Below, piece after piece: positions 4,057 to 39,710 of a DNA stretch of 64,000 nt (position 1 is its first letter; each line of letters starts with the position of its first letter). The translations under genes and the position numbers were made by a program. The stretch lies in the IMG/VR virus record IMGVR_UViG_3300046804_001245, positions 42,883 through 106,882 of that record; one strand, given 5' to 3'. The notes beneath the pieces are model-generated. The model saw nothing but the letters and a program-made list of their open reading frames with translations, did no database searches and was not told the origin of the DNA. Origin of the DNA: a virus.

Positions 4057-4086
4057 TTGACATAGCCGCAGTAATTCCTGTATAAT
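4057..4086 (+). promoter_or_regulatory. Sigma-A-type promoter
   Basis: TTGACA-N18-TATAAT upstream of the whiB cluster. Confidence 0.7.
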
Positions 4087-4127: not shown

Positions 4128-4361
4128 ATGTTAAACCTAAATTTACAAGGTGTTGAAATCTTCATAAAAAAAGCGCAGACAGAAAAAATAAATACTTTCT
4201 GGGAAAATTATGATCTTTTAATATGGAATAAAAATATCAACGGATATACAAGCAAAAACGGCATGTTTCGAAAGAATACATGGGGGACGGCAGAAAGAAT
4301 AGCCGTCAACAATAATGGTATATGGAAGCTTCCTATAAAGTATGTCAAATATTTTAAATGA
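4128..4361 (+). CDS. Hypothetical protein
   Basis: 77-aa ORF after the promoter; overlaps whiB. Confidence 0.65.
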   Translation: MLNLNLQGVEIFIKKAQTEKINTFWENYDLLIWNKNINGYTSKNGMFRKNTWGTAERIAVNNNGIWKLPIKYVKYFK

Positions 4362-4653
4362 TTTAGGTGTAGATACAGACGATTTTGACTGGTGGCATCT
4401 AGCAGTATGTCGTGGAATGGATACAAATCTATTCTATGATAAGTATGAAGTAGACGCCAACATAGCAAAAAATATAGACGACGCATGCTTGTCATGCCCA
4501 GTACTTAAAATGTGCTATGAATCAGGCATAGAAAAAGCAGAGTATGGAGTATGGGGTGGCGTCTATATGTCATCAGGAGAAATAGATAAATCTAAGAATC
4601 TCCACAAAACTCCAGAAATTTGGAAGAAACTAAGGAGTAAAGGTGTCGCTTAG
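4342..4653 (+). CDS. whiB: WhiB-family Fe-S transcription factor
   Basis: Four Cys (AVCRG, CLSCPV, MCY) and the YGVWGG turn motif. Confidence 0.9.
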   Translation: MSNILNDLGVDTDDFDWWHLAVCRGMDTNLFYDKYEVDANIAKNIDDACLSCPVLKMCYESGIEKAEYGVWGGVYMSSGEIDKSKNLHKTPEIWKKLRSKGVA

Positions 4654-13790: not shown

Positions 13791-14148
13791 ATATAATAAC
13801 GAAATGTTATTGTATTATATTTAAATTGATATATGAGTAATTGAACCCCATTTATCATATGGTCGTAATGTTGTCAATAGCGCATATGTTCCAGGATTTG
13901 TCAATAGCTCTCGTAAATAGGCGATTTCGCCCACAAATACGAGATAAATTTTGACAGATTTTGGATTAAATTGGATCTATTTTGATCTATTATTATAACA
14001 TTTTGTTATATTCTTTGAGATATTGATCAAACTTTGAGGGATTTTCTACATGTTCTCGTAAAAGCGCATTCTTGCCCGCTTTTATTTAACACAAAAGGGG
14101 CAAATCGGACATATAGTCCAATTCACCCCAATGGTGTATTATGTTTAT

Positions 14149-14367
14149 TTAGTTGCGATATTGCGCTGTATGAGTTTCACGATGTAATTCATTTTCTTTA
14201 TCGTGATATTTCTTGATATAACTAATTAGTTCAATTAGTCTTGCTTGTGTATATGGTGGATATGTTGTTGTTATGATATTAGCAAATAATGCTGGATGAA
14301 AATGGTGGTCATTTAGGATTTCTTCTAATTGGTCGATTACTTTGTCTACTTTTGTCCGCCGTCTCAT
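14149..14367 (-). CDS. Hypothetical protein (last gene of the island)
   Basis: GAAAGGCGGA RBS; variant promoter AGTCAG-N10-TATACT at 14392-14413. Confidence 0.7.
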   Translation of the reverse strand: MRRRTKVDKVIDQLEEILNDHHFHPALFANIITTTYPPYTQARLIELISYIKKYHDKENELHRETHTAQYRN

Positions 14368-14441
14368 TGTTCCGCCTTTCTATTTTGTGAGAGTATATCA
14401 TAAAGGGCTGACTTGCGCCAGCCCTTGTCTGATCTATTTAT

Positions 14442-14588
14442 TTAGTTCTTTGCTTGCTTGGTCTCAGCAGAAAACTTTACGCCATTCTTTTCCGCCTCTG
14501 ACAGGGCCTGCTTAGCTGCAGCTGAGAAACGGCCACGGCGGCCAACAGTAATTCCCTTGCTTGCTAGATATTCACGCTTTGTTGTCAT
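14442..14588 (-). CDS. Stand-alone Lsr2-like DNA-binding domain, 48 aa (not in ORF track)
   Basis: MTTKREYLASKGITVGRRGRFSAAAKQALSEAEKNGVKFSAETKQAKN; the RE...G..V..RGR pattern matches the Lsr2 C-terminal AT-hook-like domain; GAAAGGA RBS. Confidence 0.7.
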   Translation of the reverse strand: MTTKREYLASKGITVGRRGRFSAAAKQALSEAEKNGVKFSAETKQAKN

Positions 14589-14685
14589 TTTGTCTATCCT
14601 TTCATGATAGGTATATATTTTATCAGGTATCCACGAATTTGTAAATACCCCCGTAAAAGGGCCTTTGGCCCCGCATTCTCGCAGC

Positions 14686-16116
14686 CTAGTCGGATATGTC
14701 CGATTTGTCCACTACGATAATATCATTAGACATGGATGGATATCCATCTTCTAACAAATCTGTTGTATCTCCTTCAAGCTCGTTATCTACATAATGAACC
14801 TGAATTGTAGAATCAGTTTCTATTTGGATCCAAGAATGTGTTGCGGCATTGGAGGCAATATCCCATGCCTCCTCCGCATTTGCCGCTTCCACATCAATAT
14901 AGTATTCAATTAGTTTATCTCCGAAGACTCTATGCTTGCTCATTTAGCCACCCGTCCTCATCCAGGGATACAAGGAAGTCGTTATCCCTCATCCAATCTC
15001 TGATTACCTCTTCCAGGATTTCGCCGCCGTGGTCCATATTAATACCAAGACCGTCGACATCATCCCAGAACTTATCCCAGATTTGTTTAAGAGTTACGCC
15101 AGTTGGCACAGCCTCGTCAACATAGTCATTAACAGCAAGGTCTTCATACTTACAATTGTCGTAGATGTCCTTGATTATATCAAATGTCCATGCCCACAAC
15201 AATGAGGGAAATGCGGCAACATCAGACAATAATCTGTTAATCTCCAGCATTTGATTGTATACGTCGTCCCTACGTGTTTGGTCCTGTAGATCTAATTGTG
15301 CTTTATGCACATCTAATGATTCAATTTGCATTCTTGGTCCTTTCGTTAATTGCAAATGCTAATGCATATGTCATTTGGTAAATATGTGTGAGAGCGTCCA
15401 TTTGGCCCTCCCAGTATTTCCGCTCCATAGATTCCATGGCGTCGGAATAATCATTCTCTTCCTCAATACGCTGTGCTTCCTCCAGTTCACGCTCTGCGTC
15501 TAGCATGAGGACCTTTAGGTGCCCGTGCAAGATATCGGTGCCAGAAGACCCAGCGTCGACCTGCTTCTGCAGATATGGGTCCAGTTCTAATGTGTTCATA
15601 GTATTTCCTCCACGTATTCAAGGATGTGAATTGTAGCAGAAACTTGGCCGCTTGTATAGTTATACTCAAAGTCTAATTCAGCATAATCTTTTGAGGCGGG
15701 GTCCAAGGAATCCATACGAGTAGACAACTGAGACAAATCCTCATTCAAAGATTGTATATGTAATTGAAGATAAGTAACTAATTGGGTCTTCCTATTTATA
15801 TATTCAGTTTCCATTTCTCTCCTCTATACATTTAAAACAAATCTCTTTGTTGTTTACCGATACGGTAATTACTTTATAGTCATAACAGATATTACACATT
15901 GAAGTAGAATTCATCTCCCTCATTTAAATTATAAAACTCATTGAATTTATTCTTCAGCAAAGGGTCATCATACAATTGGATTAATTTCCAATCTGCATAC
16001 ATGGTTCCCTCATCTAAATTGGACTGATTAAATTGGTCAAACAGTTCCATTGCTACAGCATGAATAATTTCACCTGTATCTGCTTCAGTCATATCGTCAA
16101 ATACCGAGTGTTGCAT
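14686..16116 (-). CDS. Operon of small acidic hypothetical proteins (14686-14943, 14930-~15330, 15321-15599, 15596-15814, 15892-16116)
   Basis: Overlapping - strand ORFs with RBS motifs. Confidence 0.7.
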
Positions 16117-16889
16117 TATGCTTTCTCCATTCTATATTCAGGTACGTGGTCGGAATCCAAGTATACTTTATGGGTCTGACATTCTTTGACATTATCTAGG
16201 TCTGCCTCCCCAAGCCAATTACAAGCAGAGCAGATTTCTCCACAATCATTATCGCAATATTCCATTGTATTATCTGAATCACAATCACGACATTTGTTCT
16301 CATACTCTGAGATAGATATAACTTCTCCACGAAGTAATTCCATTTCTCCGCCCCAACCTGTTTCTTCCTCATAAGATAGAGTTAGCAATAAACTAGGATA
16401 TTGTGCAGATAATTTTTGGAGGGCAGGAACAGGAGGAGACCAAGCAGTATTAAAGTTATAATAAACTACTAAGTTCTCTCCATTTTCAGTAGGCCCTTCC
16501 ATATATGTATCTGAATATTCTTTATTATCAGATATAGCCACATCCCATTTTGTTCCCCAATTAGTTATATTCCATGAATACCAAGACTTATCTTCTAATC
16601 TAAGTTTTTCAGTATCATTCCACCAATTAGGGTCAGATACATCTAATTCAGAACGAGTTGGTTGTGCAACATATTCTAAATCAGTTATACCTGCTTGGCG
16701 GTGGTTATAGATATTATAAAAAGCAAAGACAGGATTAGGATATGTAGTCTGAGATACTTCCATATTTCCAGTAGTTTTATTCCATGAATCATGTAACATG
16801 ACGAATGGTTTATTCATTTGTTTTACAAGGTCATTTACCAATTCAGGAGAACCTTCAATTGTAAGACCGTTATAGCACCAATTTGGCAT
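16116..16889 (-). CDS. DUF1281/YubB ferredoxin-like domain protein
   Basis: MPNWCYN..., WYSWNITNWGTKWD, FNTAWSPP and YEE motifs; start moved to follow the CGAAAGGAA RBS. Confidence 0.75.
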   Translation of the reverse strand: MPNWCYNGLTIEGSPELVNDLVKQMNKPFVMLHDSWNKTTGNMEVSQTTYPNPVFAFYNIYNHRQAGITDLEYVAQPTRSELDVSDPNWWNDTEKLRLEDKSWYSWNITNWGTKWDVAISDNKEYSDTYMEGPTENGENLVVYYNFNTAWSPPVPALQKLSAQYPSLLLTLSYEEETGWGGEMELLRGEVISISEYENKCRDCDSDNTMEYCDNDCGEICSACNWLGEADLDNVKECQTHKVYLDSDHVPEYRMEKA

Positions 16890-17020
16890 TATATATTCCT
16901 TTCGTTCGGTTGAATGGTCCAATTATACAATGCCCCACCGACATTTGACAATATCCCCCAAGTTTCGGGAAATTACATTAGATCTCGTAACAGAGCTATA
17001 TGGTCCTCAGGCATGCGGGC

Positions 17021-17165
17021 AAAAGCAAATCCCCCAGGAACCAACTGGGGGATATTGACACGTAGGGCTGCTAGTCAAACGAAAGGAATTAAGTAAACAC
17101 TGCTTTACTTAGCGACTTGGGGAATCCCTATAGCCGCACCCTACATTTAAATGGGCCTAAGCCGT
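17021..17165 (-). ncRNA. Candidate ~145-nt structured small RNA with anti-RBS segment
   Basis: TATAAT at 17172-17177; helices GTAGGG/CCCTAC and TAAGTAAA/TTTACTTA; 3' terminator ATCCCCCAG/CTGGGGGAT-TTGCTTTT; no convincing ORF. Confidence 0.6.
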
Positions 17166-17172
17166 AGATTAA

Positions 17173-17577
17173 TTATACCAGAAGAGGGACGTCGGTATAT
17201 TTCTCTACGAATGTGCGTAGGTCCATTACGAAGAGGGGCTCATTGCTCATACCACGAACCTTGTTGTCCAAGTTATAGAATGAATCCTCTGTATGAAGAC
17301 TAAAAGTCATTTGTGTAAAGTCGACGATAGCAATCTTGTGCTCGTTATCGCCAATCTCATTTACATGCAGGCCCCATCCAGTCTCCATAGACCAACCGTC
17401 GCCAATCATATGACTGATTGCGATACGTGTTGCATATGAAGGGTCCGACCAACGAGGCTGTGCTTTTGCAACCGCCTCTGCTAAATTGGCAAGCATGTTG
17501 TGGCCCGCCCAGTGTCCATACAGTACAATTGTGTTACCGTTCGGCTGTACAAATCCGAAGTTTGCTCTGTCACCCAT
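17173..17577 (-). CDS. Hypothetical phage protein
   Basis: MGDRANF...LYGHWAG; RBS present. Confidence 0.75.
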   Translation of the reverse strand: MGDRANFGFVQPNGNTIVLYGHWAGHNMLANLAEAVAKAQPRWSDPSYATRIAISHMIGDGWSMETGWGLHVNEIGDNEHKIAIVDFTQMTFSLHTEDSFYNLDNKVRGMSNEPLFVMDLRTFVEKYTDVPLLV

Positions 17578-18135
17578 TTATTTCTTCCTTTTCTATTATT
17601 GGTGTTTCTTCTTTACGGTCTAATTCTATAATTTCATAGGCCCACTTGTCAAGGGTCTCTGAATATTTATTTCGGTGGTGGCCACAGAAATACAATTCGC
17701 CATTAGTTCCTCTAGATAGGAATAAGGCTTGAGCTGAGCATGAATCGCATTTAATCCACTCAGAGGTCATTGTTTAATGTACCAAATTCGATTTTGTCTG
17801 CTATATCGTCCATGATTTGGCCTTCCTCGCCTAAAATAGCATCGGCTGCCCATTGACGAATATTGTTAATAATTACTTCACGAGTAAATTTAACACCATC
17901 TTCAAAACCATCTTTGTAGTCCATGTTACCTCCTGTAGCCTGTTGGCTGGTAATCTGTCTCCACTAGTATATCCAATTTATACTTAGATATCAAGGCTGA
18001 AACTTTTTCAATATTTCCCGTCCCAATATCAAATACAGTTGAATCTATCCAATATGGATCTAATCCAGCGAATTCAGCGTCCCAATATGCCGCTTTGAGG
18101 GCGGCAGTATTAGGAGCACGTAGTTGATAATACAT
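17570..18135 (-). CDS. Three small genes (17570-17770 CxxC...CxHH; 17760-17924 not in track; 17926-18135)
   Basis: Coupled - strand ORFs. Confidence 0.65.
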
Positions 18136-18689
18136 TAGTTCCAGTCCTGACTATCAACTAAATCAATATCCCATGAATCTACTTCGGTAGTAAAATCATT
18201 TGAGTCGACTGAAAGATTGTCAGAGAGATGATAACGAATATCAAAGTCATTAACTTCGGTAATATCTACCTCAGTACTTCCTGATACTGTAAGAGTTACA
18301 GTCCAGTTCATTGTTTGTTTTGGCTCATGGTCAAGGATTACACAAAGGTCACGAAGAACCTCTTCCTTGTCGACTGTATCTGAGAACCAACTATCAATAG
18401 TTAAATTATCGATAATCTGACCGATTTGTTTTTCTTGTGATTCAAGACGGGCATCACGATATTGTGCTTTTCTAAACATCTCGCTGATGTCTGCACGATT
18501 TAGAGTCCATTCTCTAAGTTCGCCATTTGGCAAGTGTTCATATGCTTTGATTGTTGGATTAGCGAAGAGCAAATCCTCCAATTCAGTTGCTTTATATAGT
18601 TTATAGATACTGTCATTTGATTCTGGCTGAATTTCACGAACAGTAGTTAATGCATGAGGATTATATGAATCCTGCGATACTATTTCCAT
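18135..18689 (-). CDS. Hypothetical protein
   Basis: Start MEIVSQ follows the AACGAAAGGAA RBS and the promoter at 18717-18738; the longer track start overlaps the tRNA. Confidence 0.7.
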   Translation of the reverse strand: MEIVSQDSYNPHALTTVREIQPESNDSIYKLYKATELEDLLFANPTIKAYEHLPNGELREWTLNRADISEMFRKAQYRDARLESQEKQIGQIIDNLTIDSWFSDTVDKEEVLRDLCVILDHEPKQTMNWTVTLTVSGSTEVDITEVNDFDIRYHLSDNLSVDSNDFTTEVDSWDIDLVDSQDWN

Positions 18690-18804
18690 TTGTTTCCTTT
18701 CGTTGTTATTGACCGTATTATAGCGGACCTGACTGACAAAATCCAGGGGTCCCGCCCCTTTGTCGTAACAATCTTTTTTGGATTTCACGTATGCGGGCGA
18801 GCTG

Positions 18805-18879
18805 CGACCCATACCAGATTTGAACTGGTGATCTCCACCGTGACAAGGTGGCGCTTTAACCATGCTAAGCCAATGGGCC
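18805..18879 (-). tRNA. tRNA-Asp (GTC), CCA not encoded
   Basis: Acceptor GGCCCAT/ATGGGTC-G; anticodon arm CCACC-TTGTCAC-GGTGG; T arm ACCAG-TTCAAAT-CTGGT. Confidence 0.9.
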
Positions 18880-18885
18880 AATAGG

Positions 18886-18903
18886 GGGCCCCTTGCGGGG
18901 CCC
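18886..18903 (-). terminator. GC hairpin between the DUF932 gene and the tRNA
   Basis: GGGCCCC-TTGC-GGGGCCC; may be a processing signal or terminator. Confidence 0.5.
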
Positions 18904-18911
18904 GTCATTCT

Positions 18912-19922
18912 TTAGAATGATTTTACAACCTGAAGAATTTTATTCTTCTCGGCGGTAATAATTGGGTCAAAACCAGAAGCAGAAGCCCACTTTGATTCTG
19001 AATTACTCTTGCGAGTAGGACGGAAATAATCAAGGCGTTCAGTAAGCGCATTGAAAGCGCCCCATTTTGTTCCCTTGATATTAGCATTGGTCGGAGAGTT
19101 ATGGTAAAGGTCATTTAGCAAAACAACCTTGTTATCCCATTTTGTCTTAGCCAATTTAGAATCAGATTCGGCAGGCTTAGGATAAATTGTTTTTACAATA
19201 TCCTGAAATTGCTTATCTGTAATTTCAGCAGCGAATAGAGATTGAGCCTCTTTTTCAAAAGCGTCGAAATAGCCAAGAGTAAGACCAAGAGTCTCACGAG
19301 CAATTTGAATCTTACCTTCCGCCGTTTGAGTGTGGCGAATCTTGAAAGATTGCTTTGATTGCTTCATCGCTAGGTTTAGCGTATTTTGGCATACGACACG
19401 AACAGGTGTAATCGCTGCCTGAACAGCAACAGAGCCGTCGTGTGATGTCCATACGATAAGATAAAGTTTAGTTTTATCGTTAGCACCTTTAGGGTCTAGC
19501 ACCATTTCACGGGGAACAGTAAGAGAACCGAATACAACTTTGCCATTCTTTAGAGAACCAGCAGATTCCCAAGCGCAGCGAGAATCGCCGTCTAGGATAT
19601 TGTCAGCGAATGAAAATAGTTCTTCATTCTGAACAACTTTATATCTAGCACCGACAGTTGAGAGAACATCTGTTCCGCCATTGAATGGGTTAGTTCTAGT
19701 CACGAGTTGTGAATTAGAAGAATCATTCCAAGATTCTGGAATGAAATCAGATACAGGTGAAAGCGAAACATTCCAATTAGAAAGTTTAGCCTCATCTAAC
19801 ATCATTTGAGTTGAAACAGATTCATCTTGTGCGAAGATTCTGTTTGCGAGATTGTGCCAAGCGGGAGTTCCACGCAAGGCGAAAGCGACTTCGTCGCCAT
19901 TTATTTCTAGGTTATGAGCCAT
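18912..19922 (-). CDS. DUF932 family (TIGR03299 phage/plasmid-like) protein
   Basis: AWH, Y.VVQN, ESAGSL, SHDGS, TPVRVVCQNTL, IRHT and GTKWGAFNALTE motifs. Confidence 0.85.
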   Translation of the reverse strand: MAHNLEINGDEVAFALRGTPAWHNLANRIFAQDESVSTQMMLDEAKLSNWNVSLSPVSDFIPESWNDSSNSQLVTRTNPFNGGTDVLSTVGARYKVVQNEELFSFADNILDGDSRCAWESAGSLKNGKVVFGSLTVPREMVLDPKGANDKTKLYLIVWTSHDGSVAVQAAITPVRVVCQNTLNLAMKQSKQSFKIRHTQTAEGKIQIARETLGLTLGYFDAFEKEAQSLFAAEITDKQFQDIVKTIYPKPAESDSKLAKTKWDNKVVLLNDLYHNSPTNANIKGTKWGAFNALTERLDYFRPTRKSNSESKWASASGFDPIITAEKNKILQVVKSF

Positions 19923-20216
19923 AGATTTATCCTTTCGATAGTTGATTAGTTCCTGAATTATACACTACGCTGCCGACATTGTAAATAGTTAGTTCCAATA
20001 TAGGGCAAATCGGACACCCTGTGAGAAAGCTCACAGGATCCAGGGGTATTTTAGACTTGACGTAACGGGGCTTCGCCCCCCACAGTTGTGCGGGCCTTCA
20101 GCTCATGTACTCGTTGATCACATCCAGCGCATTACACAATTGGCAGAAACATTCGCCATGGTCCATAACATCTTCCCAAATTAATTGCTGCAATTCGTGC
20201 ACCGCATATGGACCGC

Positions 20217-20936
20217 TCATTTTTTACTCGCAGAAAATCTTATGTCTGCTTTATTAAATACGCAGAGCCCACACGATACACAGGCTGAACCGTTAGTAGA
20301 TATTAGCGGAATTCGTTTAGCATTTTCAGGACACTTTGCGCCTACTTTGCCAGTTAATTCTTTCATGACAGTTTCTGCCACCGCAAAATTCTTAGCGAGA
20401 TACGCAAGGCGTGTGCCGTGATTAGTACGCAATTCTTTAGCAGTATCTTTATTTTCATCATCCGTCGAATAGTAAAGAGATAGATTAGCAATTCCCTTTA
20501 GAATTACGGCGGCGGAAGCGACACGGGTATAGACCCAAAATTGAACATCAGGGTGTTTCTCAATAACATTCTTCCACGCATAGGCATATGTCTCATTAAA
20601 GAAATCTCCGTCCCAGTGGATACGGAATAATTTATCGGCATTTTTCTTATCACAGTCCGCCTTGAATTCTACAATCATTTCATCTAGAAGAGAGACCATT
20701 GTTTCGATATTGGCATTGCGTATCAATTCCCAATTATGGAGCAGTACGGCTTTAACGCCTTTATACACCTTTTCTAATTTACCAGCATAGCAGACACTTT
20801 CGCAGATACTAGTTGCGCCAGGACATGAATAGGCCTTACCAGCAGGCAGGCCAAAAGTATTAGCAATCGTAGGTGTCTTCCCGTTAGGGCTAACGGCGTT
20901 AGCCACTTTTCGGTCATTAGAGCGTTTCAATTTCAT
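20217..20936 (-). CDS. Gp88-like (radical-SAM-related) protein
   Basis: FGLPAG..SCPGAT..C..VCYA, FRIHWDGDFF, WVYTR and C-terminal CP...C..C..C; leaderless start 7 nt after the -10 at 20944-20949. Confidence 0.75.
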   Translation of the reverse strand: MKLKRSNDRKVANAVSPNGKTPTIANTFGLPAGKAYSCPGATSICESVCYAGKLEKVYKGVKAVLLHNWELIRNANIETMVSLLDEMIVEFKADCDKKNADKLFRIHWDGDFFNETYAYAWKNVIEKHPDVQFWVYTRVASAAVILKGIANLSLYYSTDDENKDTAKELRTNHGTRLAYLAKNFAVAETVMKELTGKVGAKCPENAKRIPLISTNGSACVSCGLCVFNKADIRFSASKK

Positions 20937-20949
20937 ATGGGTAATTCTA

Positions 20950-21306
20950 TCACCACATACCGACAGCGAATTCGGCAACAGTATCTAGACATTCGGCGCA
21001 TGCCCAATCATCGCCATAGACTTCGTATTCTGCCTCATCGACAAAATAGGTGGCAGTACCACAGATTTCATAGTATAAACAATTTACTTTTATCATTTAG
21101 TTTCCCTTTCGTTATGCGGATATTATAACAGATTAGACTGACAATTTATCTTCGACACGCCACCTTGCGACATATTTTTCTAGGTCTGCTAGGTTATCAT
21201 CTGTGAGATAGGTGGAGATTACGCCAAAAGAATATGCGTATTCGTTATAGCCTTTTTCTTTTGCGTAGGCTAGGAGGTCATTTAGAATATCGTTTCTGTC
21301 TTTCAT
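20950..21306 (-). CDS. Two tiny genes (20950-21096 Cys-containing; 21133-21306), not in track
   Basis: Each has its own TGTCRG-N10-TATAAT promoter and GAAAGG RBS. Confidence 0.65.
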
Positions 21307-21525
21307 TTATTTTCCTTTCGATATGCCGACATTATAAACTAAACCGCCGACATTTTCCATTCCAGCTTGGGCGTGTCGCAAATTATTTTTGTGGGGAATC
21401 TCACAAAATCCAGGGGTATTTTTAAGTTGACGTAACAAGCTCGGCGCCCCCACTCTTTTGCGGGCCATTTTGGGAAGATGGGGCGGGGATCTAGATGATT
21501 ACACAGTTCAAACCCGCCCCAAGCT

Positions 21526-21783
21526 TTATGCTAAACCAATTTCTACTTTAGTTAGTTTAGTTGGCTTATATTTAGTTACTGTTTCCATTGGTAGAAACAG
21601 AGCCACAGTTTTTCTTTTCTTTAGTTTATCATAAACAAAAGCACGAACATTTCCAGAAAATTGGTTTAGATTAGAAAAAACTAATTCTGTTAGGTGTTCT
21701 TTATCTACTCCGTCATCTGAGAAAAGAGTCAAATCATTTTGTTTTACGTCATCATATATTTCGATACGATACCGATTACGCAT
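21526..21783 (-). CDS. Hypothetical protein
   Basis: 85-aa ORF with RBS. Confidence 0.65.
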   Translation of the reverse strand: MRNRYRIEIYDDVKQNDLTLFSDDGVDKEHLTELVFSNLNQFSGNVRAFVYDKLKKRKTVALFLPMETVTKYKPTKLTKVEIGLA

Positions 21784-21908
21784 TTTATTTCTTTCTGTTA
21801 GTAGGGATTTTAGTTGAGCAGTTTAGCCTTGACTTGCTCAGGTCAGGTATCTTTTCCGTTAGGAGAAGTTTAGCATGGGGGACTAGATTTTGTCTAGCCC
21901 CCAATTTG

Positions 21909-22331
21909 CTATAAGTATTTAGCGATAGAGTTGTAAGTAGATGTGGAAACTGTTTCCTCATCTGTCATCTTGAGAATACGGATAGCGTTCTCAATTTCCT
22001 CTACCATTTCCTTATATTGCCAATCATGGAAAGACTCAAAGTCTTTCTGCGGTTCAGTAGGAAGCGTGATAGTTCCTGCTGGTAATTCAAAAGAAACATA
22101 GATTTTGCCATTGTATCTGACATTGGCAGACAGTTCATCTGCCTTAGCAATTTTTTCAAGTGCTAACTTAGCAACTTCCTTGTTGTATTTCTCTTGTGCC
22201 TTTGAGAACTTTTCCTCATTGACTTTTTGATTAGCCTTATCCTTTTGGAGTTGAGCCAATTTATTTTCAAGTGCCTTGATTACTTTGGTTGTAGCAATCT
22301 TGACATTTATGGATTTACCATTTCTAGCCAT
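21909..22331 (-). CDS. Hypothetical coiled-coil protein
   Basis: Promoter 22362-22383, AACGAAAGGAA RBS, downstream hairpin 21877-21902. Confidence 0.75.
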   Translation of the reverse strand: MARNGKSINVKIATTKVIKALENKLAQLQKDKANQKVNEEKFSKAQEKYNKEVAKLALEKIAKADELSANVRYNGKIYVSFELPAGTITLPTEPQKDFESFHDWQYKEMVEEIENAIRILKMTDEETVSTSTYNSIAKYL

Positions 22332-22404
22332 TTTATTTCCTTTCGTTAGTTATGAGCAAGAATTATAGCAGGGGATACTGACATTGTATCCCCCACCTAT
22401 TTAG

Positions 22405-23439
22405 TTATTTAGCAGGTGCGCTAGTCCAGCGTTCCTTGCCATTGACATCAAGCAGAATACGATTTACACCTGAAGGGTGATTATCTACTGCTTTGATAAC
22501 GCCTGTCACGCCACTATTAGTGGTTGTGTAGGTCTGTCCGATTTCCAGAGTTGCCATTTATTTTCCTTTCGTTGTTGTGGAAGGCTATCCTAGCATAGCC
22601 CACCGACATTTTAGAGCCACGCCTCTAGGTGGTGTTGTTCTACGATAGCCCAAGCGGGTGCGGTATTGAAACCTTTATAAGTTATGCCTTCGGGCATTGG
22701 TATCTCACGATCAGTTTCGCCTTCGTTGTAAGCCTCAATAGCCTCAATACACGGCAATACCATAGATTTAGGAACGGGCGGGTAATGATTAGAAGTTAGG
22801 TGAATACCAATAGCGGTAGATAAGTCTAATTCGCCATTGGCTAATTCTGTTGCGAAGGTGCTACCCATTTAGCACCTCGTTTCTCATTGTTTCAATTTCG
22901 TCAATAGTAGCGATTAGGTCTTTTACTTGGCTTTCAGTTAGTAATACTTTAGTAGCCTTATCTACTGCGGTGCTTGCTAGCATAGAAGCATAGACGAACA
23001 AGGCTTTGGCTATTTGTTCATCATCTAATTCTTTGTAAGAGTGTGTAATAAATTGAGCGAAGCCCATAGCCTCGTCATCAAAAATAGTTTCTTCAGTTGC
23101 CTGAATAAGAGCGGTTGCGGTTGCTATCATTTATTTATTTCCTTTTCGTTTAGTGGTGGGTAGATTATACACCTACCCACCGACAATTTAGGCAAGGGCT
23201 AAAATAGCCTGCGTTGCACCTAGATTTACGGCATCTAATTCTGCCTGTAATTCCTCGGTTGTCATTTTAGTAGGGTCGCCTACTAATTCGGAGATAGCGT
23301 CACGATTAATCATCTCTACCATTTCGGTAGGCATGCGTGAGATTTGTGGATAGAAAGAGCCATTAGTATCTAGTTTAGATACAAAATTAACTCCATTAAC
23401 GGAGAACGGGAACGAAGCCCAGTTATCTGTGTTTAGCAT
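22405..23439 (-). CDS. Small hypothetical genes (22405-22557 not in track; 22611-22868; 22861-23130; 23188-23439)
   Basis: ORFs preceded by the repeated promoter and RBS. Confidence 0.7.
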
Positions 23440-23725
23440 TTTTTCCTTTCGTTTGTTTGATTAGCGCAATTATAGCGTAGGCTACTGACAAATTAGTTTT
23501 ATTCTGCCCGCCAGCTTTGTGATAAACATCACAAAAATCCAGGGGTTTTAAACTTGACTCGTAACAGGAGTTTGCCCCACTCTCCTTTGCGGGCGATTTG
23601 TTGAAAGTTCAACCAATTTAGTTGATTATTCAACAAAACGTTTTTTATGTTTTGATTTTCTTTTGTAAATTTTTTTAGACGGAATTGGTTGCGCCGCATT
23701 ACTACGGCGCAATTCCAAAACTTTT

Positions 23726-24848
23726 TTAATTCGTGGTAAATTTTGGAACACGATAATTGCTCGCTTCGTAGAATTTATTCGCATCAAATCTAGGATTATC
23801 TTTTGCGAACATCAACGCAAAATCAACAACCATTTTAGAAAAAATAGCGGGGTGAGTTTTATCTGAAACATACCGCAGAATTTCTGCGGTAGCGACATAG
23901 TCTTTACGAGTCATCACGATTTTACTCCGTCACACTCAACAACATCAAAAACATCAAATTTTGCCAAGTCTGAGTCTGGCAATTGAAATAGAATTTTGTT
24001 TAGCGCAAAAACCGCTTGTAAATCGGTTTCTGCTTCGGTAACAAAACTAATCAAGACATTTTTTTTCATTAGTCATTCTCCTTATCAAATAGAGAGCCGT
24101 CATAGTGAGATGTTGGATTACAGTCACAAGGCTCAATGTTGTAATCCTCAGCACCGCCATAGAAAAGCCAACCTTTTCCGTAGCAGGTATCGCAGTCAAA
24201 AGCGAGAGTATGAATTGTTTTCATTTTTAGTTTTCCTTTCGTGTTGTTTCGGTAATTGTAGCATTAGCCACCGACAAAATTGCCGATAGATTAGAATTGC
24301 GTTTTTCTTTTACTTCCGCTAAACGCTGGGCGATAATGAATTCTCTAAATTCTTTTAGATCCATTTTAGTTTTCCTTTCGTTTTGTTATTGGTTGAATTA
24401 TAGCGTGGGGGTCTGACATTTTCCCTAGTTAGGGAGAATGTCTGGACCATAATAAGCAACGGCGGAAACGATGTTCATCATTCCCTTATATTCATTACAG
24501 GATACGCATACGCTATTCCAGCGGTCATAAGTTTTTGAGCAGAATACGCAGATGTTATCCTGAAGGCTAAAGCCTAGATTTTCAATTTCTCTAAGTGTAG
24601 TCATTTAGTTTTCCTTTCGTAGTAAATCAGATTATAGCGGAAGCCACCGACATTTAGTCGGCAACTTTCACGGCGACAGTCGCCCATTTATTTCCGTTGA
24701 AACGGATAGCGTAGGCTTCATAGCCGTCAAGCCAAATATCCTCACGCTTTTCTGCGAAAGTAATTTCGCCGAATTGGTATTTTCTCGCAATAGAGCGAGG
24801 GTAATAAGTCTGACCTACAAGAAGGTCGGGAATTGAATAAGTTTTCAT
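23726..24848 (-). CDS. Small hypothetical genes (23726-23917, ~23914-24069, ~24070-24224, ~24429-24604, 24654-24848)
   Basis: Read manually downstream of the repeated promoter/RBS units; several are Cys-rich. Confidence 0.6.
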
Positions 24849-25267
24849 TTAGTTTTCCTTTCATTTTGTTACTCCGTGAGTTTATCAAATTGGACTGACA
24901 TTTTCAAATCGAAAATCGGTATAAATCGGACATTGTGATAATCATCACAAAAATAAATTAAAATAAATTTGACTGGTCAAACTTTTTTCGGGCGTGTCGC
25001 AGGATTTCGGGAAATCGGACATAATGGACTTAAAGGATAAATCGCCCGCACAACTGTGCGGGTTGCCGCAGCTTTTGTCAAGCCGACACGCCGTTAGGTT
25101 AGTGTGAGATACGCCACAAGAAACCCTAGCCCTATACAGAGCGACAACAGGGCGGCGGCATGGAGTAGGTGTATCATTTAGCACACCTCTCACATGGTTC
25201 TATTGTATATTCATGACGATCACCTACATAGATGACCTTTCTACCATAGCACATAGAGCATTTCATT

Positions 25268-26102
25268 TTAGACCGCCTCTTCCAATTCTGCCAAAGCCTC
25301 ATCTTCTAATTCTAGCATTTCATCTAGAGAGATTTCAATAGGGTTTATTTCTTCTTCATCATAGTATTCAACCTCATAGCCGTGTTGAATACTTTCATAT
25401 TTGTATGAGTTATCTGTTCTATCAAACGAATACATTTATTTATTCTCCTTTACTTTCTGTTCTTCCAAATCTTATACGCTACCACTGACACGATAGCAAT
25501 TCCAATTCCTAGCCATGATGCGTAGAAATCAAATTGAGCGGTTTCGAAGGCAATTCCCTCAGAGCCTAGTTCTATTAGTAAGTATCTATCCATTTTGTTT
25601 ATCTTCTTTCTCTATCTTGTATGCTGTAAGCATATCCTATGCTGCTGACAATTTCAGGGGTCAGACCCTATATTTTGTGTGAGTTACCTCACACTCTCTA
25701 TAACCTCATAACCTAATTGGTTTAGGTCATAGACCCAATACTCTGTATCACAGCATAGGGCGGTGATAGTGGTATCCTCAATATCGCTAGTGATATTGGA
25801 CAATTCATCGGAGAATTCTCCACACTCATCACAGGTGAAATTCTTTACTGTATATTCATATTTTAGTGACATATTCTTATGTCCTTTCTTTCTAATACTG
25901 ATAATCTACCAGGTGCCGCCGACAATTACAAGGGGTCGGACCCTGTGTTGCTTGTGAATTATCTCACAAGATTTAGATTTTCATCGAAGGTGAGAACCTG
26001 TCTAACCTTGTATGTCTTATCTATTGGACAAATCATGTTCCAACCTTCAGGGTCTACATGTCCGCAAGTTGGGCAAATTGGGTGAAATTTTTCGTATGTC
26101 AT
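25268..26102 (-). CDS. First island genes: tiny acidic, TM and Zn-finger proteins (~25268-25435, ~25450-25592, 25684-25872, one starting ~26102)
   Basis: Each follows a TGTCRG-N10-TAnnnT promoter. Confidence 0.55.
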
Positions 26103-26360
26103 TTTCTGACCTACCTTTCTTTTTTTCTAATACTAAAATAATAACAGGGGGGTCTGACATTTTCAAGGGGACAAATGTCTCAATTCGGACATTTGTGATG
26201 TCAATCACACGATTATCCTGTGATATAGACCACATATGGGCGCAGTATTAGGACAAATCGGACATTGTAAAACTGTGCATCATACAAAATAAAAATATAT
26301 TAACATTTTTAGAAATCTAAAATTATAGTCAACTAGAATAATAAATGCTATACTGGCTAC

Positions 26361-35745: not shown

Positions 35746-38547
35746 ATGGCAGTTAGAATTCAGCTTCGTAGAGATACCGCCGCAAATTGGGTTTCTTCAA
35801 ATCCAACACTGCGGGCGGGAGAAATTGGTATTGAAACAGATACCCTTAAATTTAAAGTAGGTACAGGTTCCACACCATGGAATTCAATTACTGCATATGC
35901 AAACGTAGTACCAGCAGACCTAAATACAACCCTAAATGGATATTTAGAAGTTGGCGATTTGAGCAATACTGTGGCGGAAATTGTAGATGGAGCAGTCTAT
36001 GTTCCAGGTACAGATATAGTATTTGAAGGAACTGCAAATGCTCATGAATTAACTCTTACTGCCCCAGATGTAACATCAGATAAAACAATTACATTGCCAG
36101 ACGCTACAACCACTCTTGTAGGAACTGATGTTGCTCAAACTTTAACTAATAAGACTCTTACATCCCCCGTCGTTTCTGGTCTAAGCCTGTCTGATTCAAG
36201 CATCGTATTTGAAGGTGCAGTAGCAGACTCATATGAGACCACATTGACGGTCGGGGAACCAACAGCAGATCGCACAATTACTCTTCCAGATGTTACTGGT
36301 ACAGTAGTTACAACAGGCGACACAGGTTCTGTAACAAATGCAATGTTAGCAGGATCAATTGCTAATGATAAATTAGCTGGATCTATCTCTAATGATAAAC
36401 TAGCTGGATCAATATCAAATGATAAACTTTCAAATTCATCAATTACAATTAACGGAACTGCAACATCTCTTGGTGGAACAAGAACTCTTGGTTCAGATGA
36501 TATTTCAGAAGGTTCTACAAATAAATATTTTACAGATGAACGTGCACAAGACGCTGTAGCGGCAGCAATAGCAGCAGGAACTCATACAAACGTAACAATT
36601 ACTTATGATGATAATGCTAATACTCTAAGCTTTACAGGTGCAGTAACGTATACAGATGAAAATGCTCAGGATGCCGTCGGAAATGCCGTTGGAAACGGTC
36701 TAGACTATGACGATAATACTGGAGCAATTTCTGTAGATCCATCAGAATTTGCCCTAAGCGCAGTTGGTGCGCCTACTGGCAATATTGATCTCGGTACATA
36801 TAAAATTACAAATTTAGGAACTCCAACATCATCGGCAGATGCTGCAACTAAGGCTTATGTAGATAATACTACTGCTGGACTTAACTTTCATGCCGCCGTT
36901 CATGCAGCAACAACTGCAAATCTAGATGCAACATATGCAAATGGTACAGGCGGAGTAGGTGCAACTCTTACTGCAAATGCTAATGGAGCCTTATCATTAG
37001 ATGGGCACACACTTTCAGCAGATGAGCGAGTTCTTGTTAAGAATCAAACGACTGGATCTCAAAACGGTATTTATGTAGTAACAGCCACAGGAGATGGATC
37101 AAATCCATATATCCTAACTCGTGCTACAGATGCTGATAATTCACCAGCAGGTGAAGTAGCATACGGAGATTTCTGCTTTGTACAAAATGGCGGGCAGGCA
37201 GGATATGGATTTATTGTAAATACAACTGGTTCAATTACAATTGGAACAACCGCAATTTCATATGTTCAGTTTAATGCTGGTCAGGTTGTAGTTGCTGGAA
37301 ATGGTCTAACCGAAACAACCCCAGGAACCCTGGCAATTAATACAGCAGTTACTGTTGACCTAAATACAGCACAAACTCTGACCAATAAAACAATTACAGG
37401 ATCATTCACAGGTAATTTAACTGGAAATGCAGATACTGCAACAAATGGAGTAGTTACAACTGGATCTTATTCAAATCCTTCGTGGATAACTAGCCTTGGA
37501 TGGTCTAAAATATCATCTACTCCAACTACAATTTCAGGATATGGAATTACAAATGCAGTTGTAACAGATGCAGCAAATACTATTACTGCCGCTTCTGCTT
37601 CAACAAAACCATTAATTATTAAAGCAGCAGCATCTCAATCTGCCAATCTTCAAGAGTGGCAGAATAGTAGTGGAACTGTAATGGCAACAATAGATTCCAA
37701 TGGAAATCTAAAAACAGAATATCTTTTAGATAAAGCAAATGGTGGAAGTTATATTCAACTTCAATCAAATAATGCAGTATTGTTGTCTACACGCTCATCA
37801 ACAAATAAGGGTTTACTTGTTCAAGGTGTTGCTTCACAATCAGCTAGCCTTCAAGAATGGCAAAATTCAAGCGGAACAGTATTAGCTAAAGTTGATCCTT
37901 CAGGTAATTTAACAGCAGCATCTATAGTTAAATCTGGAGGAACTTCAAGTCAATATTTAATGGCAGATGGTTCTACAAATTCAACTGTAGCAACAACATC
38001 TGGTGGAACTGGATTAACCTCATATGCAACTGGAGATATCCTTTACGCCTCCGCCACAAATACATTAAGCAAACTTTCGGCAGGAACAGACGGATATCTA
38101 CTAACACTATCATCTGGTGCTCCTACATGGGCAGCAGCACCAATTAGCTTGCCAGCTCAAAGCGGGTCTACCGTAGGCAAGTATTTACAGTCAGATGGGA
38201 CAAGCGCTTCTTGGCAAACTCTAGTAGTTCCAATTGAAACAGGTACTGCTACTCTAACTGCAAATACTGCAACAACTATTAGCACTACCGCCCTTTCAGC
38301 ATTCACCTCAATTGAATATATGGTATCGCTAAAGCAGGGATCAAAGGTCAGAACATCTAAGGTAGTAATGCAGACTGACGGAACTTCTGTTGATATGACA
38401 GAATTTGCAATTACAGAAACTGGCGGAACAATGTCAGGAGTAGTAGTTTCAGCAACAACAGCATCAACAAATGGAGTTTTACAGGTAACTGTAACAGATG
38501 CATCAAGCACAAACGTAGATGTAAAATTCAGCAAAGTAAAGTTGTAG
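35746..38547 (+). CDS. Tail fibre with Mtd/hyaluronidase-type N-terminal domain
   Basis: IQLRRDTAANW...GEIGIETDTLKFKVG; two ASQ.A.LQEWQNSSG repeats. Confidence 0.8.
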   Translation: MAVRIQLRRDTAANWVSSNPTLRAGEIGIETDTLKFKVGTGSTPWNSITAYANVVPADLNTTLNGYLEVGDLSNTVAEIVDGAVYVPGTDIVFEGTANAHELTLTAPDVTSDKTITLPDATTTLVGTDVAQTLTNKTLTSPVVSGLSLSDSSIVFEGAVADSYETTLTVGEPTADRTITLPDVTGTVVTTGDTGSVTNAMLAGSIANDKLAGSISNDKLAGSISNDKLSNSSITINGTATSLGGTRTLGSDDISEGSTNKYFTDERAQDAVAAAIAAGTHTNVTITYDDNANTLSFTGAVTYTDENAQDAVGNAVGNGLDYDDNTGAISVDPSEFALSAVGAPTGNIDLGTYKITNLGTPTSSADAATKAYVDNTTAGLNFHAAVHAATTANLDATYANGTGGVGATLTANANGALSLDGHTLSADERVLVKNQTTGSQNGIYVVTATGDGSNPYILTRATDADNSPAGEVAYGDFCFVQNGGQAGYGFIVNTTGSITIGTTAISYVQFNAGQVVVAGNGLTETTPGTLAINTAVTVDLNTAQTLTNKTITGSFTGNLTGNADTATNGVVTTGSYSNPSWITSLGWSKISSTPTTISGYGITNAVVTDAANTITAASASTKPLIIKAAASQSANLQEWQNSSGTVMATIDSNGNLKTEYLLDKANGGSYIQLQSNNAVLLSTRSSTNKGLLVQGVASQSASLQEWQNSSGTVLAKVDPSGNLTAASIVKSGGTSSQYLMADGSTNSTVATTSGGTGLTSYATGDILYASATNTLSKLSAGTDGYLLTLSSGAPTWAAAPISLPAQSGSTVGKYLQSDGTSASWQTLVVPIETGTATLTANTATTISTTALSAFTSIEYMVSLKQGSKVRTSKVVMQTDGTSVDMTEFAITETGGTMSGVVVSATTASTNGVLQVTVTDASSTNVDVKFSKVKL

Positions 38548-38558
38548 GAGGGAAGTAA

Positions 38559-39710
38559 GTGTCAGATAAAAACTTTAAAGTAAAATCTGGACTAAATATC
38601 CCGATTACTTCCGCCGCCATTCTAACTACTGATGCAAGCGGAAATATTTCATCCACTGCAGTTCTTCCAATTACGGCTGGCGGAACAGGACAAACATCAG
38701 CAACTAATGCTATAAATGCCTTACTTCCAGTACAAAACGGATCTACAGTAAATTATGCTCTACAATCGGACGGCAGCAATGTAAATTGGGGCAAATTATA
38801 TAATCAAACAATTAAGAATAACGGAACAACAGTTACCCCAAGAGGAATAGTAAATGTAGTAGGTGCTACATTTTCAGATGATTCTGGAACAGATACTACA
38901 ACAATTACATTTACAGATACTACTGGAGTTTCAACATCTGGCGGATCTACAATTACTGCCGCTTCGGCATCTACAAAGGGTTTAATTATAAAAGGCGCAG
39001 CCTCTCAAACCGCTAATCTTACTGAATGGCAAACAAATGCAGGAGCTATGGTTGCATATGTAGATTCAAATGGATCAGCATTTTTCAATAGTAATCTTCA
39101 AGTCAATGGAGTTGCTGCAGTAGGCGGAGGCCCACAAGCATATTCTCAACTTATTATTCAAACAAATTCAGCAACTAGAAATGGCTTAGTAATAAAAGCA
39201 GCATCTAGTCAAACCGCCAACCTTCAAGAATGGCAGAATAATAGCGGTACAGTATTAGCTTCCATTGATCCTAATGGACAAATAAGAACACCACAGATTT
39301 TAAATACAGCCTCTTTTAATAATTCTCGTTTACAAATGACAAGTACTGGTTCCTTATTTGATGTAGGCGTGGCTTCTAATGTGGCTTTACGTGTTCGTGG
39401 CGCCGCCTCCCAAACCGCCAATCTTCAAGAGTGGCAAAATTCGGGGGGAACTGTATTGGCTAAAGTAGATTCATCTGGCTCTATGTTTACCACAACTGCG
39501 ACGGCAGGAACAAATACAACTCAAGTAGCAACAACAGAATTTGTTAAAACTGCGATAGATAATTTAATAGCATCTGCGCCAGGAACCCTAGATACTCTTG
39601 ATGAAATTGCACAAGCTCTAAATGATGATCCTAATTTCTATACAACTATAACTACTTTGACAAATGCATTAGCAGAGCAAGATTCATATACACTAATGGG
39701 GGTCTTTTAA
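38559..39710 (+). CDS. Tail fibre protein
   Basis: Three ASQTANL.EWQ repeats; ATTEFV...APGTLDTLDEIAQALNDDPNF motif. Confidence 0.8.
   Translation: MSDKNFKVKSGLNIPITSAAILTTDASGNISSTAVLPITAGGTGQTSATNAINALLPVQNGSTVNYALQSDGSNVNWGKLYNQTIKNNGTTVTPRGIVNVVGATFSDDSGTDTTTITFTDTTGVSTSGGSTITAASASTKGLIIKGAASQTANLTEWQTNAGAMVAYVDSNGSAFFNSNLQVNGVAAVGGGPQAYSQLIIQTNSATRNGLVIKAASSQTANLQEWQNNSGTVLASIDPNGQIRTPQILNTASFNNSRLQMTSTGSLFDVGVASNVALRVRGAASQTANLQEWQNSGGTVLAKVDSSGSMFTTTATAGTNTTQVATTEFVKTAIDNLIASAPGTLDTLDEIAQALNDDPNFYTTITTLTNALAEQDSYTLMGVF

Follow-up and report, generated by a model that had tools for sequence, protein, structure and literature searches.

The window analysed here is a stretch of 64,000 nucleotides (bases 42883-106882) of the 106,882-bp viral record IMGVR_UViG_3300046804_001245 (GC 40%). 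Its minus strand carries an island of small genes with 20 promoters of one architecture: a TGTC(A/G)G element, a spacer of ten nucleotides and a -10 box TAnnnT. The best explanation is, in our opinion, that these are probably host PafBC-dependent ("sigma adaptation") promoters, co-controlled by the cAMP receptor protein (CRP) of the host. This reading is carried by the motif and its geometry, its position before genes, its conservation in related phages, its exchange for a -35 box, the absence of a recognisable phage homologue of the activator and the finding that the candidate host lineage has pafBC, crp and promoters of the recA type.

The pattern TGTCRG-N10-TAnnnT has 20 matches in the window, 19 on the minus strand (16160-26159) and one on the plus strand (38560); the chance level is 0.99 on average and 4 at most (100 dinucleotide-preserving shuffles of the window). 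A variant, AGTCAG-N10-TATACT, is present on the minus strand at 14392-14413, giving 20 island sites in all (14392-26159). The original prediction had listed 18 minus-strand sites and the variant: all 18 are exact matches at their positions and the variant is real, with a ribosome binding site (RBS) and an ATG (14367) downstream, but the exact site at 16160-16181 had been overlooked. It had also stated that there are no sites outside the island, which is true for the minus strand of the entire genome but not for the plus strand: the match at 38560 lies beyond the island, is the sole one to do so and fits the chance level. In the remaining 42.9 kb of the genome, the motif does not occur.

The spacer is strictly ten nucleotides, as had been claimed: spacers of 7-9, 11 and 13 yield 0-1 matches per strand. 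Five apparent N12 sites were rejected, as four are island N10 sites read two bases on (TATAATnT) and one, at 42308, is unrelated. All 20 sites are co-oriented with the genes and lie 7-43 nucleotides before the start codon of an open reading frame (ORF) of at least 40 amino acids (aa), in agreement with the predicted position just upstream of an RBS and ATG or of a leaderless ATG (20936). A leader/RBS sequence, (A)CGAAAGGAAA, is common to most sites and lies between promoter and start. Among the plus-strand genes outside the island, TGnTATAAT is seen (16 forward, 7 reverse), as well as a few promoters of the form TTGAC-N17/18-TAnnnT, so that the description of promoters elsewhere as being of other types was roughly right. 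A generic sigma-70 promoter scan of the island found 64 promoters versus 49 +/- 6 expected, which is no clear enrichment, and searches of the island for LexA boxes and DnaA boxes (TTATCCACA) found none. The predicted features of the island, in window positions, are the following:

14097-26234, minus strand: entire island, some 45 small genes arranged as about 20 short transcription units, from a CRP-type box and promoter (26234/26159) to a terminator
26138-26159, minus strand: PafBC-type promoter TGTCAG-N10-TATTAT, then a 47-aa ORF from 26102
25903-25924, minus strand: PafBC-type promoter, then a 62-aa ORF (25872-25684)
25629-25650, minus strand: PafBC-type promoter, then a 47-aa ORF (25593-25450)
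25469-25490, minus strand: PafBC-type promoter, then a 55-aa ORF (25435-25268)
24879-24900, minus strand: PafBC-type promoter, then a 64-aa ORF (24848-24654)
24631-24652, minus strand: PafBC-type promoter (TGTCGGTGG...TATAAT), then a 59-aa ORF
24397-24418, minus strand: PafBC-type promoter, then a 45-aa ORF
24255-24276, minus strand: PafBC-type promoter, then four ORFs (51-63 aa) that form an operon (24224-23529)
23469-23490, minus strand: PafBC-type promoter, then an 83-aa ORF
23164-23185, minus strand: PafBC-type promoter, then ORFs of 89 aa and 85 aa
22587-22608, minus strand: PafBC-type promoter, then a 50-aa ORF
22362-22383, minus strand: PafBC-type promoter, then a 140-aa ORF (22331-21909) and small ORFs downstream
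21331-21352, minus strand: PafBC-type promoter, then a 57-aa ORF
21122-21143, minus strand: PafBC-type promoter, then a 48-aa ORF
20944-20965, minus strand: PafBC-type promoter of the leaderless GP88-family gene
20217-20936, minus strand: GP88-family protein (PF17338), 239 aa, the marker gene for gathering relatives
19957-19978, minus strand: PafBC-type promoter, then the DUF932 gene
18912-19922, minus strand: DUF932 protein (PF06067; phrog_1221), 336 aa
18805-18879, minus strand: tRNA-Asp (GTC), between two island transcription units (Rfam 63 bits)
18717-18738, minus strand: PafBC-type promoter, then a 184-aa ORF and four more ORFs (to 17173)
16922-16943, minus strand: PafBC-type promoter, then the gene of a 257-aa protein (16889-16116)
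16889-16116, minus strand: 257-aa protein with an Api92-like ferredoxin-like domain (PF18406)
16160-16181, minus strand: PafBC-type promoter inside the 3' end of the 257-aa gene, then a 74-aa ORF and four more (to 14686)
14392-14413, minus strand: variant promoter AGTCAG-N10-TATACT, then a 72-aa ORF (14367-14149)
14129-14097, minus strand: strong intrinsic terminator, end of the island

The in vivo consensus of PafBC-dependent promoters is tGTCgg(N10)tA(N3)T, with an upstream element at -28 to -23 and no -35 box, and its GTC triplet is read by arginines R46 and R50 of PafB (PMC8635444). PafBC sits between DNA of the promoter and SigA's domain 4 and requires single-stranded DNA (ssDNA) (PMC8635444; PMC11804915; PMC6789036). 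The 22-nucleotide phage pattern equals this consensus in sequence and geometry: it has the -28/-23 element with its GTC core, the fixed N10 to TAnnnT and the -26 element in place of a -35 box. Its identification as the RecA-NDp/PafBC consensus in the original prediction is thus borne out letter for letter by the published motif (PMC8635444). The only hint to the 5' end of a transcript is indirect: the GP88-family gene is leaderless, with exactly 7 nucleotides from the -10 box to its ATG at 20936, and the same distance is found in 16 relatives.

The original prediction had suggested scanning the full genome and related phages for the motif. With the GP88 protein as query, 78 related IMG/VR loci were gathered; in these, the motif was counted 788 times on the gene strand and 10 times on the other one, and a reversed control gave 8 hits. 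The motif is carried by loci of 36-43% GC and is not used by the relatives of 45-56% GC or by the Streptomyces phages: BillNye and Jay2Jay, the closest cultured relatives, which infect Streptomyces, have chance-level matches only, and the promoters of Jay2Jay are TTG(T/C)AT-N17-TAGACT. The motif was therefore rejected as a trait of the entire family. The logo of the sites reads aaa(a/t)TGTC(A/G)G(t)(g/c)(g/c)...(T)G-n-TAtaaT; the extended -10 positions are T in 59% and G in 71% of sites, and most sites have TATAAT.

An unbiased set of promoters was assembled from the relatives by searching for TATAAT, a GAAAGG RBS and a start codon while ignoring any upstream element (186 unique contexts). GTC is present in the exact register in 173 of the 186 (93%) and the full TGTCRG in 161; per position, G is found in 94%, T in 98% and C in 97%. 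Of the 13 promoters without GTC, 11 have a canonical -35 hexamer (at least five of six positions matching, 16-18 nucleotides from the -10 box). The same exchange is seen at a single orthologous position: the GP88 promoter is TGTCRG-N10-TAnnnT in most relatives and TTGACA-N17-TAAAAT in loci L070-L076, while variants elsewhere keep GTC at N10 (TGTCCT, AGTCAG and TGTCGC). AGTCAG, the variant of the window, is used by the relatives L052 and L062. Because promoters without GTC mostly have a -35 box and GP88 orthologues swap one for the other, the -26 element behaves, as far as sequence comparison can tell, as a functional substitute for the -35 box, with GTC as its invariant core; such a replacement is the trait by which PafBC promoters are defined. 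In some relatives (L053, L084 with 55% GC, L069-L076 and L063-L067), the homologous block of small genes has canonical -35/-10 promoters, with TTGCGT-N17 or TTGACA-N17 replacing the -26 type or standing beside it.

A reader for the element could be encoded by the phage or provided by the host. The original prediction had proposed to look in the rest of the genome for a phage activator of the WYL type or a sigma factor. Neither a WYL domain nor a sigma-70 region 2 was found in the phage genome, there are no PafB or PafC homologues among 999 six-frame ORFs (phmmer, all E > 0.2), and the T4-type proteins MotA and AsiA are absent too (PF09114 and PF09010 gave no hit with E <= 1 when the complete genome was searched). 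The search for the Crp helix-turn-helix (HTH) returned no Crp in the phage genome. The only candidate phage DNA-binding protein seen is a 46-aa ORF at 36902-37042 of the genome (plus strand; L091:16902-17042), outside the window and between the RuvC and glycosyltransferase genes; its HTH matches, to sigma region 4 and Crp HTH models, are weak (E 0.006-0.015). Among 20 island proteins searched against Pfam and PHROGs no regulator was recognised: the only matches are GP88, DUF932, the Api92-like domain and two PHROGs without known function.

The phage itself is, judged by its WhiB gene, its portal and its occurrence, an uncultured lake or river actinophage and not a mycobacteriophage. A WhiB-like gene (PF02467, E 4.7e-12) lies outside the island at 4342-4653 on the plus strand, and WhiB is a marker of actinobacteria and of the phages that infect them (PMC10202952). 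The phage portal shares 57-59% identity with portals of Streptomyces Stanwilliamsviridae (BillNye, Jay2Jay), and DNA of the phage is present in freshwater and river metagenomes of many studies. The mycobacterial framing of the host in the original prediction does not hold: the host would be an uncultured low-GC freshwater actinobacterium, for which M. smegmatis can only serve as a surrogate.

A candidate host order can be named with weak confidence. The contig of one relative (84% GP88 identity) is binned in a metagenome-assembled genome (MAG) of 1.3 Mb belonging to the Actinomycetota; its two other bins, Lishizhenia and Methylococcus, were rejected as wrong phyla. Genomes of this order have 1.2-1.5 Mb (one 1.7 Mb and one 2.2 Mb), are mostly closed and have a GC content of 44-52% around recA, and the order would fit 'Ca. 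Nanopelagicales' (acI). All 41 sampled genomes of the order have a PafB homologue. In genome G040, pafB is followed by PafC (HTH_PafC and WYL; E 1.5e-28 to 7p5x PafC) and then by tatC, which is the mycobacterial gene order, and its PafB, the one that was aligned, keeps the recognition helix RMFERDK with both GTC-reading arginines.

The same promoter type is found in front of recA in this order: the 30 loci read have TGTCAGtggcgcctgcTACCTT with an overlapping LexA box and/or CGTCGGtgg...ccgTACCTT, both with N10. At many of the recA loci (L099, L116-L144) of these streamlined genomes, two PafBC-type promoters stand in tandem and a LexA box is fused to the distal one (TCGAACagatGTTCGg), and the host recA RBS (cgaaaggaaa) closely resembles the shared leader of the phage. 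Further conserved PafBC-type sites of the order lie before carD and, together with a LexA box, before a LysM gene; both resemble members of the mycobacterial damage regulon. The strict pattern GTCRGTG-N8-TAnnnT occurs about 6.4 times per whole host genome versus 3.7 for the control, and 6 times in the 12-kb island. Whatever the exact order, the mechanism would need only an actinobacterial host with PafBC, and such a host is supported by the WhiB gene and the phage relatives.

An alternative reader would be a phage-encoded or virion-delivered factor of an unrecognisable family that recruits the host RNA polymerase (RNAP) to TGTCRG, by analogy with MotA/AsiA at the middle promoters of T4, in which case the likeness to PafBC sites would be convergence or mimicry. 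A clade-specific factor predicts what is seen in the relatives infecting Streptomyces, namely the absence of the motif, and dozens of orphan proteins in the island and the rest of the genome, as well as the 46-aa HTH ORF, could provide it. We nevertheless regard such a factor as unlikely. The phage has no gene for a WYL protein, PafB or PafC, MotA, AsiA or a sigma factor, and convergence would have to be extensive, as the match to host recA spans GTC, the A/G at position 5, the frequent TGG, N10 and the -10 box. Moreover, if the island is expressed first, an activator made by the phage would need an earlier promoter class.

The island promoters could also be strong constitutive sigma-A promoters that combine an extended -10 with TATAAT and are helped by RbpA and CarD, with TGTCRG serving as the operator of a repressor that silences the block or as a decoy array that deprives repair promoters of the host of PafBC. 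TG at -15/-14 and TATAAT are frequent indeed. The island holds as many strict sites as the whole host genome, so that replicated phage DNA could outcompete the host sites, and a phage with its own RecA, RuvC, DnaE, DnaB and primase may have no need of the host response. However, neither an operator nor a decoy needs the fixed 10-nucleotide register or the co-orientation with the -10 box, and neither would be swapped for a -35 box at orthologous promoters, which makes this explanation improbable. A decoy role would in any case be compatible with real PafBC binding, and secondary to it.

Activation by host PafBC was the core of the original prediction, and it agrees with the consensus, with the lack of a phage reader and with the pafB-pafC genes of the candidate host. 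Its further proposals, that PafBC is the master activator of early or host-takeover genes or is titrated away from host repair genes, are conjecture. What had been overlooked is a second conserved type of site, for CRP/GlxR, in front of many of the promoters, and PafBC is thus at most one of two inputs. TGTGA-N6-TCACA occurs in the whole genome six times exactly and three times with one mismatch, and all nine copies lie within 20020-26234 of the window; with two mismatches allowed, it is not enriched window-wide. The boxes are listed below, with box centres relative to an inferred transcription start site (TSS), which is assumed to be 7 nucleotides after the -10 box:

26219-26234: one-mismatch CRP/GlxR-type box, centre about -95.5
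26194-26209: exact CRP/GlxR-type box, centre about -70.5
25953-25968: exact CRP/GlxR-type box, centre about -64.5
25678-25693: exact CRP/GlxR-type box, centre about -63.5
25103-25118: one-mismatch CRP/GlxR-type box, no promoter nearby
24934-24949: exact CRP/GlxR-type box, centre about -69.5
23518-23533: exact CRP/GlxR-type box, centre about -63.5
21390-21405: one-mismatch CRP/GlxR-type box, centre about -73.5
20020-20035: exact CRP/GlxR-type box, centre about -77.5

The relatives have 271 exact boxes, versus 2, 0, 0 and 4 for spacers of 4, 5, 7 and 8 and none for a control with reversed halves. This strict N6 spacing argues for a protein site and not for a hairpin. Of 257 boxes with any downstream promoter in the relatives, 193 have a TGTCRG promoter within 80 nucleotides. 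The distance from box to -26 element peaks at 35-36, 45-46, 56-57 and 67-68 nucleotides, with a smaller off-phase class at 41-42; the peaks correspond to box centres near -63.5/-64.5, -73.5/-74.5, -84.5/-85.5 and -95.5/-96.5, and five centres in the window agree with them (-63.5 twice, -64.5, -73.5 and -95.5). By these distances, the boxes are mostly in class-I-like helical phasing with the promoters. Every genome of the candidate host order has one hit of the Crp/GlxR type, and the one protein checked (genome G005) matches M. tuberculosis CRP with an E-value of 8e-79. As about half of the upstream promoters have a perfect Crp/GlxR palindrome, mostly at a distance of whole helical turns, host cAMP receptor protein is a probable second input to the island promoters.

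It is very unlikely that CRP/GlxR is the main activator and TGTCRG a clade-specific weak promoter element with another reader: the boxes are perfect, highly enriched and helically phased, but in the window a box lies within 100 nucleotides of only 8 of the 20 promoters, while TGTCRG is found at 20 of 20 and at 93% of the promoters of the family.

Several observations weigh against PafBC-dependent promoters. The cultured relatives infecting Streptomyces do without the motif though Streptomyces has PafBC; the design is therefore not a general consequence of a host with PafBC. Most sites combine an extended -10 (TGn) with a near-perfect TATAAT, and it is plausible that many could fire without any activator and that there is some PafBC-independent activity. 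About 21% of the promoters have a -35-like hexamer alongside GTC, with a weak T-G-AAA signal, and host recA shows no A-rich tract like the one just before TGTC in the phage sites. About 40 island proteins have no detectable family, and an unrecognisable phage factor could thus be among them. As regards the host, its assignment comes from one of three MAG bins, and the tRNA-Asp of the phage has no match in the 41 genomes of the candidate order.

If PafBC is the activator, the island could work as follows. Each unit would start at a hybrid promoter, made of a sigma-A -10 box (TAtaaT, usually extended by TGn) and TGTC(A/G)G in place of a -35 box; the phage would have copied the recA-type promoter of its host about 20 times, without encoding PafBC itself. 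The most likely reader of TGTCRG is host PafBC, a heterodimeric activator of winged HTH, WYL and WCX domains. Once activated by ssDNA, as it is in mycobacteria, it would insert between the promoter DNA and sigma-A domain 4, with the PafB arginines reading GTC. The ssDNA could stem from DNA entry, end resection, breakdown of host DNA or phage replication, and the block would be expressed when PafBC becomes active, while roughly half of the upstream units would also respond to host Crp. What we infer from the data above is that PafBC and CRP bind and activate these promoters, together with the dependence on ssDNA, the timing of expression and the exact host.

A more elaborate version is conceivable, although we are inclined to doubt it: the block would be controlled by a gate with two inputs, built from host parts, that fires only with ssDNA-activated PafBC, switched on by entry or replication of the phage DNA, and is tuned by cAMP-Crp. 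Once amplified, the array of about 20 high-affinity sites per genome would drain PafBC from the few recA-type promoters of the host and disarm its LexA-independent damage response while the phage uses its own RecA, RuvC and DnaE, and the WhiB-like protein, which should target sigma-A domain 4 as PafC does, and an anti-RBS RNA from 17025-17175 would shut the block off.

The phage genome closes as a circle with an overlap of 85 bp; this terminal repeat was rejected as the physical genome ends, being an artefact that arose when the assembly was closed into a circle. Apart from a minus-strand block from about 29.2 to 14.1 kb, all genes lie on the plus strand. The phage encodes a portal, tail and structural proteins, ribonucleotide reductase, DnaE, DnaB, primase, RecA, RuvC and Hsp20. 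The island has no match in 50,697 phage records (megablast), and in a distant blastn search the GP88 gene in Streptomyces phages is its sole match. In the BE-cluster relatives from Streptomyces, each record has two copies of the GP88 homologue, as would be expected of a gene within a long terminal repeat. In SPO1, T5 and other large virulent phages, such repeats house the host-takeover genes that are expressed first. By analogy, the island can be regarded as a putative early or host-takeover-type block.

Contigs of river metatranscriptomes span large parts of the island and are deepest at 21906-22372, 19104-20037 and 16769-17702. As neither strand nor 5' ends nor levels can be read from these contigs, and as carried-over DNA may contribute to them, they were not used as promoter evidence.

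The WhiB-like gene is preceded by a canonical promoter, TTGAC-N17-TATAAT, at 4057. Domain 4 of sigma-A is bound by proteins of the WhiB family. PafC contacts this domain too, and we speculate that the phage WhiB may compete with PafBC-type transcription or turn it off.

A non-coding unit at 17025-17175 (minus strand) has its own TGgTATAAT promoter without TGTCRG and a terminator at 17053-17029. It folds at -51.4 kcal/mol (z -3.4) with AAUUCCUUUCGUU left unpaired. Because this unpaired sequence is complementary to ACGAAAGGAA, the shared leader/RBS of most island genes, the unit may produce an anti-RBS RNA that shuts them off. The depth of the river RNA contigs is high at this position.

Two further elements accompany the promoters. 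The bipartite GCCCGCA-N22-GTTACG (minus-strand reading), with fixed ends and a variable middle, is present five times and always upstream of a CRP box and/or promoter; the relatives have 50 copies, with spacers of 22-24 and all on the gene strand. Its copies in the window are:

16986-17020, minus strand: bipartite element
18764-18798, minus strand: bipartite element
20061-20095, minus strand: bipartite element
21431-21465, minus strand: bipartite element
23560-23594, minus strand: bipartite element

Palindromes GGGTC(n)GACCC at 25657-25669, 25932-25944 and 18745-18759 lie 8-9 nucleotides upstream of three promoters. Their opposite strand gives, inverted, GTC(A/G)GACCC, which is the word in the -26 element of the sites ending at 26159, 24418 and 16181.

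The closest known system are the PafBC/RecA-NDp promoters of Mycobacterium and other Actinobacteria, which have the same tGTCgg-N10-TAnnnT, with the -35 box replaced and GTC invariant (PMC8635444, PMC6789036, PMC11804915). In the candidate host, pafB-pafC is present and recA is preceded by a promoter of this type. Unlike the known PafBC promoters, the phage sites, predicted from sequence, are concentrated (about 20 in 12 kb of a lytic-looking phage), precede small orphan genes and not repair genes, and come with an A-rich upstream tract, a frequent extended -10, a near-consensus TATAAT and, in many cases, a CRP box.

The middle promoters of T4 have a MotA box at -30 and a -10 box and are served by the 'sigma appropriation' of MotA/AsiA, with an activator and a co-activator made by the phage. 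As there, the promoters of a class of phage genes carry, roughly a helical turn upstream of an ordinary -10 box, an element other than a -35 box, and host RNAP of the sigma-70 type would be redirected; unlike T4, this phage has no MotA/AsiA, and its element equals the site of a host activator. The island also resembles the takeover modules of SPO1 and T5 in its dense array of short units, which consist of small orphan genes and each start at a strong promoter. The modules in the terminal redundancy of SPO1 and in the pre-early region of T5 use plain host sigma-A/sigma-70 promoters, whereas the island has promoters of the PafBC type.

With class I CRP promoters (E. coli lac type) and actinobacterial Crp/GlxR sites, the predicted CRP boxes share the perfect TGTGA-N6-TCACA and distances phased by about 10-11 nucleotides; they differ in being coupled to a PafBC-type core promoter and in the off-phase minority at 41-42 nucleotides. 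Control of phage genes by a DNA-damage regulator of the host would be shared with coliphage 186 tum and CTX-phi. These LexA-wired genes have repressor operators and belong to temperate phages, whereas the island has an activator site at about 20 promoters and no LexA box, in an apparently virulent phage.

To our knowledge, PafBC 'sigma adaptation' is known only as a repair switch of mycobacteria and other actinobacteria. The original prediction knew of no precedent in a phage, and our literature search likewise found no description of PafBC/RecA-NDp-type promoters in one. New here would be the use of a known promoter type en masse by a phage and its combination with CRP sites.

If the reading is correct, this family of abundant lake phages, with about 20 copies of the promoter per genome, would be the first case in which a phage of virulent type runs a gene class via an ssDNA-activated activator of its host and not via a factor of its own. 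The 788 sites in 78 loci would be a natural library with hundreds of PafBC site variants, and relatives with canonical -35/-10 promoters provide a natural comparison set. Phased CRP boxes on a PafBC-type core would be a rare natural pairing of two global host regulators on a minimal phage promoter. PafBC could be tested directly as a sensor of infection, and the island would offer a handle on gene regulation in abundant uncultured freshwater actinobacteria and their phages.

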